From an uncultured virus (IMG/VR IMGVR_UViG_3300025900_000203) (taxonomy: Duplodnaviria > Heunggongvirae > Uroviricota > Caudoviricetes), in the IMG/VR virus record IMGVR_UViG_3300025900_000203: DNA of 64,000 nucleotides. One strand, written 5' to 3'. Positions within the stretch are counted from its first letter, which is position 1. Every line of letters begins with the position of its first letter. The notes beneath the pieces are model-generated. The model was given only the letters and a program-made list of their open reading frames with translations. It was not told where the DNA came from and searched no databases. This document shows, piece after piece, positions 13,228 to 60,179 of the stretch. Both the position numbers and the translations under genes were made by a program.

Positions 13228-15222
13228 ATGGCGCAGACGTGGCTCCAGACACCGCTCTTCGCGCCACCTGCGACGTGGCAAGCGACGCCCGTGTCGAAGC
13301 TGCCCGCGTGGACGGACGCGAAGCGGATCTGTCTCGACGTTGAATGTCGCGATGATGATCTTCACGAGCTGGGACCCGGTGTACGCCGTGACAACGCCTA
13401 TGTCTGTGGCATCGCGTTCGCGATCGAGGACGGCCCGTCGCACTATCTACCGATCCGGCATGAAGGCGGCGGCAACCTTGCTGAAGAGCATGTTTGGAAC
13501 TACATCCGCGATCAGGCTCGCAACTTCCACGGCACGTTCGTCTTTAATTCTGCTCCGTACGATCTGGATTGGCTTTGGGAGAACAAGGTCGAAACCGATC
13601 ATGTGATCTGCCGCGACGTCCAGGTAGCCGAGCCGCTGCTCGATGAGCTCCAGAAGACCTACAACCTCAATCACATCTGCGCGCGCCGAGGTCTTCCAGG
13701 CAAGGATGAGACGGAGTTGCTCGAACATGCGAAAGCGTGGGGAGTCCATCCGAAGAAAGGTCTCTGGCGGTTGCATGCCGCAGCTGTCGGCAAGTACGGA
13801 ATCGGCGACGTTCGCACACCACTTCCGCTCCTTCGAAAGCAAGAGGAGGAAATCGAAGCGCAGAATCTCCGCGAGACGTACGACGTCGAGTCACGTTTGA
13901 CGCCTGCGCTCGTGCGAATGACGCGCCGTGGAATCCGCGTCGACTGTGATGAGCTGGATCGTGTGGAGACTTGGGCGAAAGAGCGGCGAGCAAACTACAT
14001 CGATCAGATCCATCACCTGACAGGCATTCGCATCGGTTCACTCACGAAAGCGGAAGAAGTCGCGAAAGCACTTCGCCAGCGGGGCATCGACGTTCCGACG
14101 AAGGTACACGCAGGCACGGGGAAGGTGATGGCGACCGTCACCAAGCTGTGGCTTCAAGGGCTGACAGATGAAGTCGCGAAAGCGATCGTGTTCGGCCGCG
14201 AGTTCGACAAGCTGCTCGGCACGTACGTCAATGGCGTTCGCAAGCACATGGTGAAGGATCGGATCCATCCGTCCTTCAAGCAACTCGTGGGGGCGAGCGA
14301 CGAGGATGATGGCGACGGAGACGAGGATGCGGAAGGTGCACGCTTTGGCCGTGTCGCGGCAAAGCATCCAAACGTACAGGCTTCGATGAAGCGTTCGAAA
14401 GAGATCCAGAAGCGCTGGCGCAAGGTGCTCGTGCCTGATCGTGGCAAGCGTTGGTTCAAGGTGGATCTCGGACAGCAAGAGCCTCGCATCACGGTCCACT
14501 ACGCGGAAATTTGTCGATTGCCGGGATCGCGGCGCGCGGGGGACGCATTCCGTAATGACCCGTGCTTCGACCCGTATCAGCTCATGGTCGAGCTGTGCAA
14601 GACGCCGGCGGATACGGATCTCAAGCAGCTCCGCGATGACTTGAAGGAGATCTATCTCGGCCGCTGCTACGGCATGGGCGGTGGGAAAATCGCCAAAAAG
14701 CTCAAGTTGCCTACGGTGTGGAAGACGAACGAGAAGACTGGCTACTCGTGGGAAGCAGCCGGTCCTGAAGCCGAAGCGATCATTCGGCGTTTTGATCGCG
14801 GCGTGCCCTATGTGAAAGCTCTCGCCGAGATGTGCAAGGCGAGCGGCCAGGCGAAGAAGTACATCATCGCCCTCGGCAATCGACGCGTGCGCTTCGAGAT
14901 CGATGAGAATGGGAAGATCAAGGACGAGCACAAAGCAATCTCCAAGCTCGTGCAAGGATCAGCGGCCCATCAAACGAAGTCGGCCGCAGTTGCTCTCGAT
15001 GCTGCTGGATTCCCGCTCCAGATCACGGTGCATGACGAGTTCGGCTACTCGGGGGACAGCGAAGAGGAAGCTCGCGAGATGGGGCAGATCACGTGTGATG
15101 TCGTCGTGATCCGCGTTCCATTCCGCGCTGACATTGAAGTCGGCGACAGCTATGGCGATCTGAAGAAGATCTTCACGGTTTCGAGCAAGCACACGACGCT
15201 GTCGCTAGGAGCGGCGGCATGA
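13228..15222 (+). CDS. polA: Family A DNA polymerase with 3'-5' exonuclease domain
   Basis: Exo LDVE, FNSAPYDL; motif A DLGQQEPR, motif B R..LKEIYLGRCYGMG, motif C VHDE. Confidence 0.92.
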   Translation: MAQTWLQTPLFAPPATWQATPVSKLPAWTDAKRICLDVECRDDDLHELGPGVRRDNAYVCGIAFAIEDGPSHYLPIRHEGGGNLAEEHVWNYIRDQARNFHGTFVFNSAPYDLDWLWENKVETDHVICRDVQVAEPLLDELQKTYNLNHICARRGLPGKDETELLEHAKAWGVHPKKGLWRLHAAAVGKYGIGDVRTPLPLLRKQEEEIEAQNLRETYDVESRLTPALVRMTRRGIRVDCDELDRVETWAKERRANYIDQIHHLTGIRIGSLTKAEEVAKALRQRGIDVPTKVHAGTGKVMATVTKLWLQGLTDEVAKAIVFGREFDKLLGTYVNGVRKHMVKDRIHPSFKQLVGASDEDDGDGDEDAEGARFGRVAAKHPNVQASMKRSKEIQKRWRKVLVPDRGKRWFKVDLGQQEPRITVHYAEICRLPGSRRAGDAFRNDPCFDPYQLMVELCKTPADTDLKQLRDDLKEIYLGRCYGMGGGKIAKKLKLPTVWKTNEKTGYSWEAAGPEAEAIIRRFDRGVPYVKALAEMCKASGQAKKYIIALGNRRVRFEIDENGKIKDEHKAISKLVQGSAAHQTKSAAVALDAAGFPLQITVHDEFGYSGDSEEEAREMGQITCDVVVIRVPFRADIEVGDSYGDLKKIFTVSSKHTTLSLGAAA

Positions 15223-15388
15223 CAGCCAAGCACACAACGCTGTCGCTAAGGAGCGGCGGCATGACAGCCAAGCACACAACGCTGTCGCTAGGAGCGGCGG
15301 CATGACAGCCAAGCACACAACGCTGTCGCTAGGAGCGGCGGCATGACAGCCAAGCACACAACGCTGTCGCTAGGAGCGGCGGCATGAC
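15186..15388 (+). repeat. Five tandem copies of a 41-bp unit spanning the polA stop
   Basis: CAAGCACACAACGCTGTCGCTAGGAGCGGCGGCATGACAGC starting at 15186, 15227 (+1 A), 15269, 15310, 15351. Confidence 0.95.
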
Positions 15389-36413: not shown

Positions 36414-36857
36414 TCACACGGCTCCCTTGTAATCGAGGCTCCAAGTACGTTCGCCGGTGAACGGGTTGCAATGCTCGACCACCCGCAAGAGCTCCAGCGT
36501 GGGATCGTCGAACCAGTCACGAAGGAACGCTTCGATCAGGTGTCCTTTACAGCTCTGCGAGTTGAAGGGCTGCATGTAAGAGCTGCCTCCGCTGTGGTAG
36601 TGCTTGCGTGCGAGCCGCTCGTACTTCGCACGATCCCACTGGATGAGCCGATCGACATAGGTCGATCCGTTTCGCTTCGGGTTGGGGCTCGGCTGTCCCC
36701 AGATCGTGAACGGATCGTACGCGTATGGATGCGTTTGTTTGGTACGCCGCGGATGGTGACGGGGGAGGTCCACGTCACGGTTTGAGTCTTTCCGTTCACG
36801 CACGTCGTCGGCTGCGAACTTCCAGTAGAGCGGCGAGCTTTCGCGATCGAAGGTCAT
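36414..36857 (-). CDS. Hypothetical phage protein
   Basis: ATGA-coupled ORF in minus-strand operon. Confidence 0.55.
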   Translation of the reverse strand: MTFDRESSPLYWKFAADDVRERKDSNRDVDLPRHHPRRTKQTHPYAYDPFTIWGQPSPNPKRNGSTYVDRLIQWDRAKYERLARKHYHSGGSSYMQPFNSQSCKGHLIEAFLRDWFDDPTLELLRVVEHCNPFTGERTWSLDYKGAV

Positions 36858-42370: not shown

Positions 42371-42768
42371 GTCCTTTTTTCCAGCTTGGCAAGCTCATCC
42401 AGACATTCTTGCGTGTTGTCGAGGAGGCTGCATTGATAGGCGCGTCGCCCAAGCTCGATCGCACGGCGTAGGCTGTCTTTGAGTGCCACGATCTGGGCAC
42501 GCTGGACTCCCTGTACTTCCTTCTTAAGCATGTCGAAACTCTTGGTCATCGTCTCGCCGTAGAGATGATCGAGCCAGCTTTGCTCGACACGCAGTTGCGG
42601 CGGCGGCAGATCTCGTAAACGAGCTGCTTCTTTTCGTGAGAAGACATGGCGGTTCGCCATCTCTTCACTCGTATCAATCGCAATGAGATAAGGTCGCCCG
42701 CCGTCGGTTGCGGCCTCCCATACGATCCAGCACGGCTCCATGCCAGCTTCTCGGCGGATGTCGTTCAT
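42367..42768 (-). CDS. Hypothetical protein
   Basis: ATGA-coupled ORF. Confidence 0.5.
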   Translation of the reverse strand: MNDIRREAGMEPCWIVWEAATDGGRPYLIAIDTSEEMANRHVFSRKEAARLRDLPPPQLRVEQSWLDHLYGETMTKSFDMLKKEVQGVQRAQIVALKDSLRRAIELGRRAYQCSLLDNTQECLDELAKLEKRT

Positions 42769-53945: not shown

Positions 53946-54419
53946 ATGGCAACGCCGAAGCAGTTGGATCAAGACATCGACGAAGTTCTGGCAGCGCGCA
54001 AGCGTCGCGACGCGTCGACACGCTCACAGGGGACGAGCAAGATCCCGAGTCAGTCCGAGTACGAGCAACGCGAGCGAAAGGAAGCGCAGGCGAAGCTCCT
54101 TGAAGTCCGGCGAGCCCCGCTAGCGGATCGTAAGGAAGCCGAAGCGGAGTTCTTTGCGGCGATGCGGGATCATCCCGAGATCGTCGCCGAGCGTGTCGGT
54201 TGGCTTATTGCTGGGAACTACGGATACGGATCCAAGCTCCTCGCGGATCGCGTGCTGCAGTCCCCGCGCATGAACCGGCCGGCTGCGCTCACGCAGATGG
54301 TGGCGGCTTTCGAGTGGCAGTGCCCGGAGGATCACGCCCGTGCCGCGTGGAAGAAACTCTCGACGAACGAACAAGCGACGCTGGAGCGTGCGGTGCGCCG
54401 CGAGATCGCAGAAGCATGA
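53946..54419 (+). CDS. Hypothetical protein with TPKQLDQDIDEVL leader
   Basis: Strong RBS AAAGGAGG. Confidence 0.65.
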   Translation: MATPKQLDQDIDEVLAARKRRDASTRSQGTSKIPSQSEYEQRERKEAQAKLLEVRRAPLADRKEAEAEFFAAMRDHPEIVAERVGWLIAGNYGYGSKLLADRVLQSPRMNRPAALTQMVAAFEWQCPEDHARAAWKKLSTNEQATLERAVRREIAEA

Positions 54420-54874
54420 AGCTTCGTGCTCGCTGGGTCGGTCTACCTCCGCAACCGGGCGACTATCTCATGTCTGATACGCGTCCACGCTTTGCGTATC
54501 GTGTCTTGCAGGTGGTCGCTTCATCGAAGGTTGCGCTGGAGAGTGGCGGCCTCGAGAGCCGTAAACTCCAGATCGAAGTCGATCGTATCGTTGCGGCTGG
54601 AGTTCCTCCGCAAGCCCGTGTGCACCCATGGAAATGGGATCGACGAGGCACCTGATGAAGGGCTGTGTGTATCCAGTTCCGCCTCGAGCGGTGCGGCACA
54701 TCCGTCGCCCGCTATCGGATGCTACCGAGAGTTGTGGAGCGCCTGCGACGCATCGGACCGGCTATGGACTTCGCGTATGTGCGGTACATGCGATGTCCTC
54801 TGATCGCTTTTTTTCGGAGGAGGATGGTCGTTCCCAGCTCCTAAGGATCTAGAGGAGCCAAGGTCACCCTTGGG

Positions 54875-55306
54875 TCACTGCCCTTGGAAGACCCACGACG
54901 GCGCCACGTATCCGTCACGGCCGCCGCTAACGAGGAACTCGCGCTCGGCCTGCCGCACGATCTGCGCGAAGCGCTCACGAAACCCACGCAGCTCGCGAGC
55001 AGTCCCAGATCCCGGAAGTGTCTGCCAGGGGATATCGTGCTTCGTGCCACGGAAGTGAAGCCACGCTCGAAGGAACGGATCCCATGTCGATTGGAGGAAG
55101 CGGTAGCGATCGCTGGTCTCCGCGCCTGGCCGCGGACGCCACGTTCCAGGCTCGTACACGAGATCCCGCAGCGCCTGCCCGAAGGTCATGACGTTCGCAT
55201 GGAGGCGCTCCATCGAATCGTCCACCTCGTCACCGACCACGATGCGAGAATACGGTGGGTACCAGATCAAGATCGGTGCGTAGGGTGTTGGATACCAGAA
55301 CCACAT
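54875..55306 (-). CDS. Hypothetical protein
   Basis: Trp/Pro-rich N-terminus; divergent from the Cas12-like gene. Confidence 0.45.
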   Translation of the reverse strand: MWFWYPTPYAPILIWYPPYSRIVVGDEVDDSMERLHANVMTFGQALRDLVYEPGTWRPRPGAETSDRYRFLQSTWDPFLRAWLHFRGTKHDIPWQTLPGSGTARELRGFRERFAQIVRQAEREFLVSGGRDGYVAPSWVFQGQ

Positions 55307-55499
55307 GGCCGGATCGTACGACGTCAGACGTGGCCGAGGATACTTTTCGCTGCGGGATCAGAACAGGCAGTCCCTAGTGGACTCAGAACGGAAGGGCCCC
55401 CGACTTTGGCAAGCGGCAATGATCTCGCTAGGGTTGTTGACTGATTTCGACAGGATCTGCTTGCTGAAATGTCTATCGTTCTGTTAGCTCTCCACTTCG

Positions 55500-57440
55500 A
55501 TGCCGCGAGCTCCGCGTCGCAAGACCTCGGACGTTCCTACGCGGATCTATTCGTACCGTTGCTTGGCACCGATCACAGAAGCGGCGGCTGTCGAGCAACA
55601 GTTCAAGCTCGCGCACCAGTACCGTAACAAGTTGGTCGAGATCGAAGGAGCGCTTCGCGAGGCTCTTCGCAATGTGCAGATCGAGGACGACATTGTGGGG
55701 CCGGTGCTCGCCCGCTATGAAGGTGCCGAGGCGAACGTCGACGCCGCGTACGAAGATCTTCGCGCACGGAAGTCCGGAAACGCCCGAGCAGACCTCACGC
55801 AGGCGCAAGATATCCTAGAGGCGGTCAAAGAGTTGCGGGATAGCTTCGATGCTGAGCTACGCGAGGCGAAATCTTCGCGGCTTGCCTACCTGCAGGTAGG
55901 GTATGCCGCGGCACGTGAAGTCGCCCAGCGGCAACGTCGAGCAGCACGGCACGACTTCATTCAGCGCGGACTACGCACGGCCACGTACGACCGCGTCGAG
56001 AACGCTGTGAAGCAGGCGGTGGCTTCCACGCAACGACCGTTGCACTTCGAACGCTATGACGGTACGGGATCGATCGGGACGCAGTTGATCGGGGCGCGGG
56101 ATGCCTCGGCGGTGCGTGGGATGCCTGTCACCGCGTTGCTGTCGGGGAAAGACTCACGACTCCGTTTGGGCTCTCCTGGAGAAGCGGACGCGCATCCTCG
56201 AGTCGAGGTGGTTGGAACCTCGTGGGCCGATTATGAAACACTGCCTCGGAATGTGCGCCGCCACGCAGCGCGCACGTTTGTGGATCTTCGTGTTGGGAGC
56301 AACCCGGATCAATCTCCCGTCTTCGCACGCTTTCCTGTGACGTTTCATCGGCCGCTTCCAGCGGATGCTGTGATCAAGTGGGCCTACGTCGTCCGACGGC
56401 GCATCGGACATCAGTACGAGTGGCGATTCCAAGTCACGATCGAGAGCACAACGTTTCGATCACCTGCAACGCCTGTCGGCATCGGCACGTGTGCGATCGA
56501 TTTGGGCTGGCGCCGCATCTTCAACGGCCAAGGGGACGTGGTTGGTCTTCGCGTGGGATACGTCGTCGATGAATTCGGCGTCGAGAGAGAGATCCTCGCG
56601 CCGGCGAATCTCGTGCCTGGGATGGCCAAGGTTGAGGATCTTTCTTCGATTCGTGACAAGGCGTTCGATGGCGCGCGCAAGTGCTTTGTGGAATGGCTTC
56701 GCACACAGGTGGAGCTGCCAGCCTGGATGCAGGCGCGCATCACGGGGCTCGCGCAGTGGCGATCCCCCCCGAGGCTTCAAGCCCTCATCGACCTATGGAC
56801 TGGGATCGATTGGGATGCGTGGCGGGCGGCCCGAGCGATTGGTCGGAAGTGCAACCCTTCCGATTTTGCCGTGGCCACCCATCGGATCGAAGGTGATGGT
56901 CCAGTGCTCGCAGTGTTACAAGCATGGGCACGGCAAGATCGTCATCTTCAAAGCTGTCAGGAGCACCAGCGTGCACACTTGATCGCCGCACGCACCGAGA
57001 CGTGGCGCGTGGTAGCTGCCGAACTCTCCAAACGGTACGCGACGATCTTGCTCGAGAGTGGTACGCGGAAGGATGATTTACTGGATCTCACTGAGATCGA
57101 GGGCTGGGAGCAACCTGCCCCGGAAGATGGCAATCCATCGGAGGGTCGAGATCAACGAAAGATATCCCGACTCGCAGCTCCTGGTGAGTTGCGAGCCGAG
57201 ATCTTAAAGGCTGCCGGCAAGCACGGCACACGCGTGGAGGTGAAAGAGGCCGCGTATTCGACGAATGAATGTGCGTGGTGCGGATCGCGAGAGACGTTCG
57301 ATGCACGTGCCAGCATCCAGCATCGATGTGCAGCGTGCGCTCGCACGTGGGATCAAGATGCGAACGCCTGTCGTAATCTGTTGCACCGTCATGGGGTGCC
57401 AAGTGGCCCCGTACCCATGGGTACTTGCACGATCAGTTGA
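55500..57440 (+). CDS. Cas12m (type V-U1/V-M)-like / TnpB-derived RuvC protein, 646 aa
   Basis: QQF.LAH.YRN.LVEIE, FERYDGTGSIG.QL, HRPLP.DA.I, RuvC-I AIDLGWR, QWRSP.R, RuvC-II ILLES, AAPGELR, CAWC/CAAC zinc finger, RuvC-III WDQDANA. Confidence 0.85.
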   Translation: MPRAPRRKTSDVPTRIYSYRCLAPITEAAAVEQQFKLAHQYRNKLVEIEGALREALRNVQIEDDIVGPVLARYEGAEANVDAAYEDLRARKSGNARADLTQAQDILEAVKELRDSFDAELREAKSSRLAYLQVGYAAAREVAQRQRRAARHDFIQRGLRTATYDRVENAVKQAVASTQRPLHFERYDGTGSIGTQLIGARDASAVRGMPVTALLSGKDSRLRLGSPGEADAHPRVEVVGTSWADYETLPRNVRRHAARTFVDLRVGSNPDQSPVFARFPVTFHRPLPADAVIKWAYVVRRRIGHQYEWRFQVTIESTTFRSPATPVGIGTCAIDLGWRRIFNGQGDVVGLRVGYVVDEFGVEREILAPANLVPGMAKVEDLSSIRDKAFDGARKCFVEWLRTQVELPAWMQARITGLAQWRSPPRLQALIDLWTGIDWDAWRAARAIGRKCNPSDFAVATHRIEGDGPVLAVLQAWARQDRHLQSCQEHQRAHLIAARTETWRVVAAELSKRYATILLESGTRKDDLLDLTEIEGWEQPAPEDGNPSEGRDQRKISRLAAPGELRAEILKAAGKHGTRVEVKEAAYSTNECAWCGSRETFDARASIQHRCAACARTWDQDANACRNLLHRHGVPSGPVPMGTCTIS

Positions 57441-57510
57441 CGATCGTGCTCTCATCTACCGGCTACTGGCTTCAGACGATCTCGAGAGACCTGGAAGGTC
57501 CTTCGCTACA
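57411..57510 (+). ncRNA. Putative structured RNA overlapping the 3' end of the Cas12-like gene (omegaRNA/tracr-like)
   Basis: GTACCCATGGGTAC palindrome, GCACGATC-N7-GATCGTGC hairpin over the stop codon, GACC-TGGAA-GGTC hairpin ending in GCTAC. Confidence 0.35.
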
Positions 57511-57872
57511 ACACCCTCGCTATAGAGTGCGGCGTGTCGACGTTTCCACGTGGGCAGCACGCGATCGAGGAGTGTGTAGAACGCCGCGTCGTGTCCCGAG
57601 CCCTGAGGTTTCTGCTTCAACGCAAGGTGCGCGAGCTCATGCACGATGACGTACTCGAGCGCAGCGTCCGACATGTTCGAGAGCTTCAAACTGATCCAGA
57701 GACGCCGAGCCTGCGGGTTCGTCGATCCCCACGCACGCATCTTCTTGATGTGAAATTCTTGGAGCTGCACGCCGAGGCGCGGCAGCCAGAGGTCGAGGAG
57801 TCGCTGAACCCGTCGCTCAAGCCGCGCTCTTGCGAGATGATCTTCGATCTCTTGTCTGATGTTTCGTGACAC
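57456..57872 (-). CDS. YgjP/DUF45-like M48 metallopeptidase domain protein
   Basis: IKKMRAWGS, LEYVIVHELAHL, H...FY.LL...LPTW. Confidence 0.8.
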   Translation of the reverse strand: MSRNIRQEIEDHLARARLERRVQRLLDLWLPRLGVQLQEFHIKKMRAWGSTNPQARRLWISLKLSNMSDAALEYVIVHELAHLALKQKPQGSGHDAAFYTLLDRVLPTWKRRHAALYSEGVVAKDLPGLSRSSEASSR

Positions 57873-57880
57873 GTTCGAAT

Positions 57881-57951
57881 GTAGCTTGCGGCATCAACTG
57901 CCGCAGGACACGCTCGATGTTCGATGTAGCTTTCGGCATCCACTGCCGCAG
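57881..57951 (-). CRISPR. Putative minimal CRISPR array: two 26-bp hairpin repeats with a 19-bp spacer
   Basis: Minus strand CTGCGGCAGTGGATGCCGAAAGCTAC / ATCGAACATCGAGCGTGTC / CTGCGGCAGTTGATGCCGCAAGCTAC (24/26 identical, CGGCA..TGCCG stem); about 440 bp from the Cas12-like gene; orientation inferred. Confidence 0.45.
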
Positions 57952-58083
57952 CCTTCGCGCTGTGGCCGCAGTCGCGATCGTCGACCGATCGCGCAAGCAA
58001 GCCAAGCGTCGTAGCGATCGAAGCGTCCGGCGAATTTCTCGGGATTTTGGGAAAAAACTTGCAGACGTCGTAAAGTCGATCCT

Positions 58084-59382
58084 GTGGCGGATATCAAGAA
58101 GATCGGTAGCCTTGTCCCTGAGGAAGGCGAGGGAATCATCACCGAGCGAGGCCCTCGTGGACCACGTGGACATGACGGCCACGAGGGACCGACAGGTCCT
58201 ACAGGTCCTGGCGGTGGTGGAGCTGGTTCGACGGGACCGACCGGATCAACCGGATCGACTGGACCGAGTGGAGTTGGACCGACGGGTGCGACGGGTGCTC
58301 CTTCGGCAGTGACAGGTCCCACGGGCTCGACAGGTTCCACAGGGCCGACAGGTTTCACAGGGCCGACAGGTGCTCCTTCGACGGTGACGGGACCTACTGG
58401 GAGCACCGGCGCGACGGGTAACACAGGACCGACGTCGACGGTTACGCAGTACACCTTCATCCTCAATCAGGACGCTGCGCCGTCTCCTTCACCGCCGCTG
58501 TATCAGGATTGGGCCACGTGCTTCGCCGCGATGTCGCTCGTTCCAGGCCCCAAGCTCCTCGTGCTGGCTGCGACGGGTCACACGACGACCGTGCCCCTCG
58601 GGACGTGGGACTTCACAGAAGTCACGGTGCTGGGTGATGAAGATCAAGACATCCAACAGGTGCTCGATTTCCCACTCGCCTCGGATGGGGTGGTGGCCAC
58701 GAACCTCGGCACGATTGGTCCTGGTGTGACCATCACCGTGCACACCAACACGCCGCCCGTGCAGGACTTCTTAGGTCCGATTCGTCTCGCGCGAAACAGC
58801 ACTGTCGCTCCGATCGTTCCGCTGTGGGCCTATACCGCAGCTTCTGTCGGGAAGACTGTACAGATTGACGTCTACGGCAATCTCGGTAACGGAAGCCAGA
58901 ACGCCTTCGACACGTCTGGATCGGGCGGCATGATCGTTCACCTGCTCGCCGCGGATGGGGCTGTCATTCTCGACAGTGCCCTCAGCGGTGACGGCGGCGC
59001 TGGATCATTGCTGATTCAAACAGGCGAAAACGGCAATGCGGGAGCGATTCAAGACAGCTGGGGGACGGTGGACTTTGTCAACTTCTTCCCAGGCGCGAAT
59101 GTCGTCGGGCTTGGAGATGGCAATACAATCACCACGGGACATCTGTCCGTCGGCGACTCTACAGGCGGCAATCTCAACTGTCCGTTAATCCCTGTCAATC
59201 AAACGGCTGGCGGTATTGCCATCGTGAAGAATGTCGGTACCGCGAATACGATCACCATCACGGCCGCGGCCTTTGACTTTATCGACGCCGCGCCGACCAA
59301 CACGTTCGTTGTGGCGGCAGGCAAGGCAGTGTGGCTCATGAATGACAACAGCCACCTCTGGTACGTCGTCGCGCAGGCCTAG
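58084..59382 (+). CDS. Collagen-like (GxT repeat) fibre protein with beta-rich C-terminal domain
   Basis: [10 protein letters not shown] then GPTGSTG repeats. Confidence 0.8.
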
Positions 59383-59729
59383 ATGAGTCTTGTGCGTACG
59401 GTGACGGATGGATGTTCGTCGCTCTCTTCTGCCTGGACTTCCACCTCGCTTGCGAGATAGCCGATCTCGTCCTTGGTGAATCCAGTGACATCAAACGTGA
59501 GGACGCGCAACGTAGCTCCCCCGCGTTTGGTTTCCCCGCGTTTGACGATCTTCGAGTCCAGCGGGCTGGCATCCGGGTGCCCAGGCTTCCCTTTGTAATA
59601 GCGCTTTCCACCCTGTCCATCGGAGGCTTCCCCTTGCGCCACGGCTTCTCCTTCGAGCGCTCCGATTTCAGTTTTCGACAGCGACGTGACATCGAACGAG
59701 ACCTCGAGTTTCGTGCAGCGCTTGCTCAT
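59379..59729 (-). CDS. Hypothetical protein with internal duplication
   Basis: FDVT..SK.EIG.L..E...Q.E.SD occurs twice. Confidence 0.6.
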
Positions 59730-60179
59730 TGACTGCAGGATACCAGGTGGGATGCCAGCCCGCGATCATGCACGGCCACGCTCCTTTGACCTCGCGCGTG
59801 AAGCTGCTACTGTTCAAATCAGCGAGTTGTGACGGCATGAGCACCGTGGCGCGCGGCATCCGGGTGGACGGAAGGATGGTGATCGGTTGCACGCTCCACC
59901 AGGCTCTCCGCATCGTCGATACGCCAGAGGAGGGGATTGTCGCGTGGGACGAGAGCGGCTTCTCGCTGCCCACTGGCCGTCGCATCGAGATCACTAGCGG
60001 CGATTGCTTCACCACCATCTGGTGGGCGCGCTGTCGCACACCGTGGTGCAAAGGGAAGATCCCAGACGATCTGCCGCTGGAGGATCGTGCCCGTGGCGCG
60101 CGCTGGATCCATCCACCGCCTTGGCTGCTCGTCCCTGTGTCTCGGACGTGGGACCTGGTGCCGTGAGCGTCCCGGCAGC

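Follow-up and report, generated by a model that had tools for sequence, protein, structure and literature searches.

Solo type V-M CRISPR repeats beside a phage cas12m gene whose adjacent array and leader have probably been lost

This report concerns a 64,000-nucleotide stretch of DNA from an uncultured virus (IMG/VR record IMGVR_UViG_3300025900_000203), here called the window, and within it the surroundings of a gene for a putative Cas12m, the effector of the type V-M systems of CRISPR (short palindromic repeats, clustered and regularly interspaced). The window comes from a large tailed phage with genes for a terminase, a DNA polymerase, helicases, a clamp loader and collagen-like tail fibres. 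A 98%-identical relative, locus L020 in our numbering of related loci, lies on a contig of 201,725 bp, and the phage genome is thus about 200 kb long. No match to the segment 55300-58100 was found among GenBank phages. Next to the effector gene are two hairpin motifs in opposite orientation, repeats A and B in what follows, and the features that concern them directly are these:

55500-57440, + strand: cas12m, predicted type V-M effector of 646 amino acids (phmmer against PDB, Pfam TNB, 83 homologues)
57417-57449, + strand: repeat A, putative degraded V-M CRISPR repeat (second match of repeat model R1, 17.2 bits, E-value 0.016)
57450-57469, + strand: would-be guide of repeat A, by position only; antisense to the stop codon and non-conserved tail of a peptidase gene
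57952-57970, - strand: would-be guide of repeat B, the first 19 nt past the repeat, by position and the published 17-bp heteroduplex and 20-nt guide
57971-58006, - strand: repeat B, complete 36-nt solo V-M CRISPR repeat (best match of R1, 30.4 bits, E-value 5.9e-6)

The effector can be identified from its homologues. In a phmmer search of all PDB chains, the protein matched 23vw_A, "CRISPR-associated DNA-binding protein Cas12m", with an E-value of 2.4e-56 in two stretches across residues 17-628; other matches were Cas12m2 (8hio, 2e-24) and UnCas12m4a (23vu, 1e-15). The D, E and D positions of its RuvC site, in IDLGW, LLES and DQDAN, align to the same motifs in 23vw_A, and the C-terminal zinc ribbon is recognized by Pfam PF07282 (TNB) with an E-value of 1.2e-7 and 32.2 bits against a cutoff of 26.3. 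With homology across the WED, REC, RuvC and TNB domains, the predicted product of 55500-57440 is Cas12m, the type V-M effector. Its C-terminus reaches 6 residues past a conserved SGPVP, while its relatives extend 20-60 residues further; the stop codon, TGA, occupies 57438-57440. No adaptation genes lie near the gene. Reports on characterized Cas12m proteins describe them as binding DNA without cleavage and as processing their own precursor of the CRISPR RNA (crRNA) (PMC11013384, PMC10442227).

The relatives of this gene show what normally lies behind it. A protein search gave 83 homologues, and an alignment of 25 of them, used for locus scans, found 18 viral and 18 metagenomic loci; the same scan found no Cas12m relative in 185,579 species genomes. 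The DNA 3' of cas12m was read in 15 closer loci (L001 and L019-L032). Twelve of the 15 have a canonical CRISPR array there; it begins 100-450 nt past cas12m, and its 36-nt repeats recur about every 72 nt. The three without an array are L020, which has the layout of the window, L029, where the contig ends, and L024, with none within 3 kb. The 12 array-bearing loci also share a leader, in which a repeat-like hairpin directly 3' of the stop codon is followed by the motif TGACAACTGAATAG about 10 nt before the first repeat. This motif is present as a single copy, just ahead of the array, in 12 of 16 loci scanned, the others being L020, L024 and the truncated L029 and L033. It is not found in the 64-kb window at up to 3 mismatches, nor in L020 at up to 2.

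The leader itself (L023:5310-5356, and at the same place in 11 other loci) combines a covarying hairpin with TGACAACTGAATAG and is kept among relatives of 40-66% protein identity; it is a candidate for a promoter or for an element bound by Cas12m. Several of these loci have further peculiarities. A solo V-M repeat of 35.7 bits stands at L032:2360-2395, about 600 nt upstream of cas12m and behind A+T-rich sequence. A normal array is present in this locus too, and the 20 nt that follow the solo repeat have no self-target within it. L021, a metagenome contig of 3.4 kb, has V-M repeat-like 36-mers inside the cas12m open reading frame (ORF) at 1822-1857 and 2732-2766 (34.6 and 34.2 bits), which read in frame as the insertions LARSDDDRD and LARSVDDRD; neither the window protein nor any of the other 82 homologues has these. 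A duplicated LPEIDG segment follows the second insertion, and two further repeats lie inverted upstream of cas12m (706-741 and 837-872, - strand). In L019 a second array upstream of cas12m, at 17-2897, has a different repeat sequence of the same build (TGC, a 6-bp stem, a 7-nt loop, GAC) at irregular spacing. Polymorphic repeats with compensatory stem changes from copy to copy are found in the arrays L025:2063-3012, L026:5411-8149, L028:4863-6880 and L030:5625-8259; their spacers range between about 12 nt and several hundred, and in this they differ from arrays that adaptation maintains.

A covariance model of the repeat, R1, was built from 18 array repeats of 12 loci, with the window and L020 left out. 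Besides a conserved 5' TTG, a G-rich loop of 7 nt and a terminal AC, its alignment has a 7-bp stem that is paired in 100% of cells, with double changes at 5 of 7 pairs; none of 500 shuffles reached its covariation score, and slid registers came nowhere near it. The whole 64-kb window was then searched on both strands with cmsearch, without filters, and repeats B and A came first and second. This is the check by a covariance model from relatives that an earlier note on this DNA had proposed. That note, made from the sequence alone, had pointed out a motif over the cas12m stop codon (57424-57446, + strand) and an inverted copy of it (57997-57975, - strand), and both are where it placed them. As an inverted pair they are beyond chance (2 matches against 0.02 expected, none in 100 shuffles) and 87% complementary. 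The compensatory stem change that it saw between the copies is real as well, and amounts to one, A-T against G-C.

Repeat B aligns to positions 1-36 of R1 without a gap. From a 5' CTTG it runs through a stem of 7 bp, in which 57993-57987 pair with 57979-57973 around the loop GGTCGAC, to a 3' AC (it ends in GAC), and it folds with -14.6 kcal/mol (z = -2.6 against shuffles). In repeat A the stem is formed by 57428-57434 with 57442-57448, and the loop AGTTGAC (57435-57441) contains the stop codon of cas12m. Its wear consists of a 2-nt gap in the 5' part, which lies within the ORF, a change of the terminal GAGAC to GUG-C and the loss of the terminal AC. In L020, R1 scores 30.4 bits at site B and 22 bits at site A (E-value 0.0012). 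The sole polymorphism in either repeat is at 57449, a C in the window and an A in L020 and in contigs of sequencing runs X2 and X3, so that the last two scaffold positions of repeat A read CT in the window and AT in the others. Since 57449 is the scaffold position equivalent to A(-2), the L020, X2 and X3 strains retain the canonical base.

Two lower matches of R1 in the window were taken as chance: one at 42371-42402 (E-value 0.077), which reads in frame to a stop on the - strand and is coding-like, with no gene call there, and one at 36594-36634 (E-value 0.31), with an over-long loop. It was also considered whether repeat A might be the orthologue of the leader hairpin of the relatives, to which it aligns similarly. 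However, a second model, R2, built from 7 such leader hairpins, has no match to repeat A; in the window it finds only the palindromic stem of repeat B, at an E-value of about 0.8. Since R1 matches both motifs and R2 explains neither, repeats A and B are best classed, by these model scores, as array-type V-M CRISPR repeats, one intact and one degraded.

The published biochemistry of the family fits this assignment. In the Cas12m2 study, the crRNA consists of a 36-nt repeat scaffold and a guide of 20 nt, 17 of them paired to the target, and cryo-electron microscopy has the protein reading G(-23):A(-2) and C(-1) base-specifically (PMC10442227). Cas12m is further reported to need no trans-activating CRISPR RNA (tracrRNA) and to process within the repeat (PMC11013384); a 56-nt crRNA suffices. 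Repeat B keeps the positions read by Cas12m2, that is, a G preceding the stem, an uninterrupted helix, and both A(-2) and C(-1).

The window locus lacks the array of a complete V-M locus: no CRISPR array stands beside its cas12m, only two R1 matches have an E-value below 0.05 in the 64 kb, and there is no leader motif. We therefore consider it probable that A and B are solo V-M repeats beside a phage cas12m whose usual adjacent array and leader are gone. The leader and the array would have been lost from the position directly after cas12m in the lineage of the window and L020. Repeat A would be a worn repeat fused to the 3' end of the gene, its loop holding the stop codon and the two terminal bases of its scaffold altered; most likely it is the relic of the first repeat after deletion of the C-terminal tail, the leader and the array, and at best it would serve as a weak scaffold riding on the cas12m mRNA. 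Repeat B would be the complete one, in the opposite orientation, upstream of the peptidase gene and on the same strand. Transcription of the - strand from 58007-58083 would yield a B crRNA, which Cas12m would bind, trim upstream of the scaffold and keep together with a single fixed guide, the next 17-20 nt (from 57970 downwards). The Cas12m-B complex, being a DNA binder, would then silence a matching target next to a protospacer-adjacent motif (PAM) in the host or in a rival element.

The gene between the two repeats, and the sequence around it, have to be considered before this account is weighed:

57456-57872, - strand: intact short gene of a YgjP-like zinc metallopeptidase, 138 amino acids, HELAH motif (Pfam PF01863, E-value 5.4e-23)
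57470-57509, + strand: reverse complement of peptidase codons 122-134 (VAKDLPGLSRSSE), by codon map; the 40-nt hairpin element of the earlier note
57879-57968, - strand: 45-nt tandem duplication, two copies of 76% identity, each with a small hairpin
58007-58083, no strand assigned: A+T-richer intergenic stretch, by sequence, between repeat B and a divergent collagen-like tail-fibre gene

The peptidase gene is convergent with cas12m and starts with GTG. It has 73 homologues, of which 15 were aligned (alignment A3, 129-143 amino acids); they are collinear from the first residues to the C-terminal V-A-x-x-L-P-G, and the gene is therefore not a fragment. Its close relatives reach at most 36% identity in viral contigs and 47% in genome contigs, with relatives of 60-75% in metagenome contigs. 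Among 36 related loci, it stands beside cas12m in L020 only, as it does in the window. The conserved C-terminus of this peptidase accounts for the element on the + strand that the earlier note took for part of a guide RNA. The hairpin GACC-TGGAA-GGTC within 57470-57509 corresponds to codons D125-L126-P127-G128; in A3, L126 and P127 do not vary, and the conservation of G128 is at least 90%. The fold of the element has a z of +0.32, with 116 of 200 shuffles equally stable. It is ordinary peptidase coding sequence and not a part of a guide RNA.

A similar correction applies to the - strand, where the same note had read a mini-array of a 26-nt repeat, a 19-nt spacer and a second repeat. The two 26-nt units (57951-57926 and 57906-57881) lie within the 45-nt tandem duplication, in which the "spacer" and the trailing sequence are also alike. 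The units are beyond chance (2 against 0.00 expected, none elsewhere in the window), and so is their hairpin core CGGCA-N5-TGCCG (2 against 0.14 expected in the window). They score at most 3.2 bits with R1, and when the 98-nt stretch was compared with repeat B, 837 of 1000 shuffles scored as high; on these results, the notion that the units, or the segment separating them, derive from V-M repeats by decay was rejected. The 26-nt units are not repeats of this Cas12m. The duplication ends 8 nt before the GTG start of the peptidase, a position which suggests a 5' leader or operator, and most likely the duplicated hairpins are part of that gene's 5' region. Elsewhere in the window, at 15186-15388 just past the DNA polymerase ORF, a 41-nt unit is repeated in tandem in 4.9 copies with 98% matches.

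Several observations weigh against the account of two solo repeats left by the loss of an array. A simple deletion explains neither the inverted orientation of repeat B nor the arrival of the peptidase gene, and the duplicated hairpins are likewise left unexplained. Repeat A could be merely a hairpin between convergent genes, given its marginal E-value and lost terminal AC. An array elsewhere in the phage genome of about 200 kb, outside the 64-kb window, is possible. The would-be guide of repeat A has no match elsewhere in the window, and that of repeat B no target there. A promoter of B could lie only in 58007-58083, and a scan of 55200-58400 for consensus sigma-70 promoters gave no site; a terminator scan of the same segment also gave none, and no T-run follows either hairpin. 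The sequencing runs that contain the stretch are DNA runs, with no RNA run among them. In favour of the account, contigs of four soil or rhizosphere DNA runs, three rhizosphere runs among them and one perhaps the source, have the same layout, without inversion or deletion joints in the segment from A to B. As to conservation, the layout occurs in only two near-identical genomes, the window and L020, with no substitution in 57873-58083 and about 0.8% divergence overall, and it is therefore uninformative on selection for B.

Searches for targets of the guides went beyond the window. Within the window, guide B finds at best a non-self match of 13 nt, at guide positions 11-23 (E-value 0.016 in that search). 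Its 20-mer has no exact match in IMG/VR viral contigs, and nothing better than an E-value of 0.4 was found for it in GenBank phages. In 147 genomes of one myxobacterial order, the order being a guess, there were 4 hits at up to 1 mismatch against 16 for a reversed control, which is what chance gives.

The alternative that stands up best, though we regard it as unlikely, is that the hairpins act only as signals of transcription or RNA stability, repeat A as a bidirectional stop and repeat B as a 5' stem-loop, with no role for Cas12m, and are functionless relics as far as CRISPR is concerned. It would fit with the way in which repeat A fills the 15-nt gap between two stop codons, and with the mutated terminal bases of its scaffold. 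The lack of a T-run after either hairpin and of any terminator-like site speaks against it, as does repeat B, which keeps all 36 positions of the repeat and not merely the stem.

It has also been considered that repeat B, and perhaps A, is a regulatory unit of the CreR or crRNA-like RNA (crlRNA) kind, whose guide would partly match a promoter of the phage itself, so that Cas12m would turn down cas12m or an adjacent gene. According to two reports (PMC10120712; 10.1101/2023.03.10.532045), repeats and mini-arrays that stand alone beside cas genes are widespread and, in types I and V-A, regulatory. Repeat B is directly upstream of a gene, and solo repeats near cas12m also occur at L032 2360-2395 and L021 706-872. 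The expected partial target is what is missing: there is no PAM-proximal one in the window, where 13 nt is the best non-self match of guide B, and upstream of cas12m and of the peptidase gene there is only a 6-nt match, TGCGGC, to the duplicated units. We hold this explanation to be distinctly unlikely. In the systems covered by those reports (Shmakov et al. 2023), the likeness is a repeat outside an array beside the effector gene, with one copy degraded; theirs are of types I, III and V-A, exist alongside a normal array and have a spacer partly matching the promoter of a cas or cargo gene. The locus here differs in being of type V-M, with no array seen and no partial self-target found.

A more elaborate proposal, which we regard as improbable, is that of a hard-wired Cas12m, in which two fixed scaffolds bracket the metallopeptidase gene and the effector has turned into a phage regulator coupled to the peptidase. 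Repeat A would ride on the 3' end of the cas12m mRNA, antisense into the peptidase gene, and repeat B would stand in the peptidase 5' leader before the two duplicated hairpins. Regulation would proceed through binding or trimming of the scaffold RNAs by Cas12m, or through one fixed guide against a host gene.

The interpretation put forward in the earlier note was of two dedicated guide-RNA units in a new composite architecture (a scaffold hairpin, 23 nt, and a hairpin ending in GCTAC), the one at the 3' end of the gene omegaRNA-like and the other CRISPR-like, perhaps an intermediate between omegaRNA and CRISPR. Its layout is literally present on both strands, with 23 nt ending in GG followed by an element running from CT to GCTAC. 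The parallel between the strands, however, is not beyond chance, one of the elements being coding sequence and GCTAC commonplace in the window (48 and 50 copies on the two strands, about 0.75 per kb). Repeat A does overlap the 3' end of an ORF as omegaRNAs do, and the - strand region folds better than shuffles (z = -3.2). Against this, the second element on the + strand is conserved peptidase coding sequence without excess stability, the 26-nt units fail R1 and are unrelated to repeat B, and the relatives have plain arrays. There is no Rfam match in 54000-60000 at E-values up to 1. The idea of two guide-RNA units for one effector thus stands in so far as both motifs match the repeat model of the Cas12m relatives and their stem covaries; the second-tier elements are not parts of guides. 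An undescribed guide architecture is not called for either, since published Cas12m is reported to work with a 36-nt repeat and a 20-nt guide, a 56-nt crRNA alone, and no tracrRNA (PMC10442227, PMC11013384). We judge the composite unit very unlikely.

The comparison with the omegaRNA of TnpB deserves to be spelled out. The two are alike in that the nuclease ORF ends within a guide scaffold, here repeat A, which spans the stop codon. The difference is that repeat A is a 33-nt remnant of a CRISPR repeat and not a long structured RNA tied to a transposon end: in a 104-nt fold from 57412 (z = -0.8), structure is confined to the 21-nt hairpin of the repeat. IS200/IS605 ends are absent here, and the relatives have canonical arrays at this position instead. 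The omegaRNA-like unit and the intermediate are accordingly set aside for motifs that are V-M repeats, and the A/B unit would work like a CRISPR repeat unit, unlike an omegaRNA.

Two further explanations can be dealt with briefly. It is highly improbable that a small mobile cassette with the peptidase gene inserted behind cas12m and that A and B are its terminal inverted repeats: two 23-nt inverted copies (20 of 23 identical) do bracket a single gene, and one found beside cas12m in so few loci, but both arms match the CRISPR-repeat model of other loci, including the 5' CTTG, the loop and, in repeat B, the 3' AC, and the 64 kb contain no more copies, while the sequence has neither a flanking direct duplication nor a transposase. 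Barely credible is the suggestion that the solo repeats are RNA anti-CRISPRs (Racrs) soaking up a host type V-M effector, as solitary phage repeats that mimic host repeats are reported to inhibit host Cas proteins (PMC10651486), for here the matching effector is encoded by the phage itself, next door, and the species genomes scanned hold no relative of it.

The reading that we favour, of solo repeats left beside a cas12m without its array, places the locus close to several known systems and apart from each. With the type V-M loci of MmCas12m2, GoCas12m, MsCas12m and TfCas12m it shares an effector homologous over its full length, a 36-nt repeat whose helix is closed by G and A and which ends in AC, and the absence of adaptation genes nearby. 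It differs from them in that the window has no adjacent array or leader, only one intact and one degraded repeat, opposed, around an unrelated peptidase gene. MvCas12m of a myxophage is likewise a phage-borne effector; a 2026 preprint (10.64898/2026.09.14.751636) reports a Cas12m encoded by a phage, with an array next to it, as the first such case. Isolated CRISPR repeats on phages are known as well from viral mini-CRISPR arrays and solitary repeats (Medvedeva et al. 2019, PMC6858448; Racrs, PMC10651486). These are described as relying on or inhibiting Cas proteins of the host, whereas here the phage encodes the matching effector. In the literature that we searched, neither solo repeats of type V-M nor a phage cas12m lacking an array are described.

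With this locus, type V-M would join the subtypes in which repeats stand alone next to the effector gene. It would also be a case of a phage-borne, cleavage-free CRISPR effector that has persisted after the loss of the gene-adjacent array, with one intact repeat kept. If repeat B is expressed, it would make this a natural single-guide Cas12m and, if that is true, a small, testable case of an immune system reduced to a DNA-binding regulator with a fixed target.

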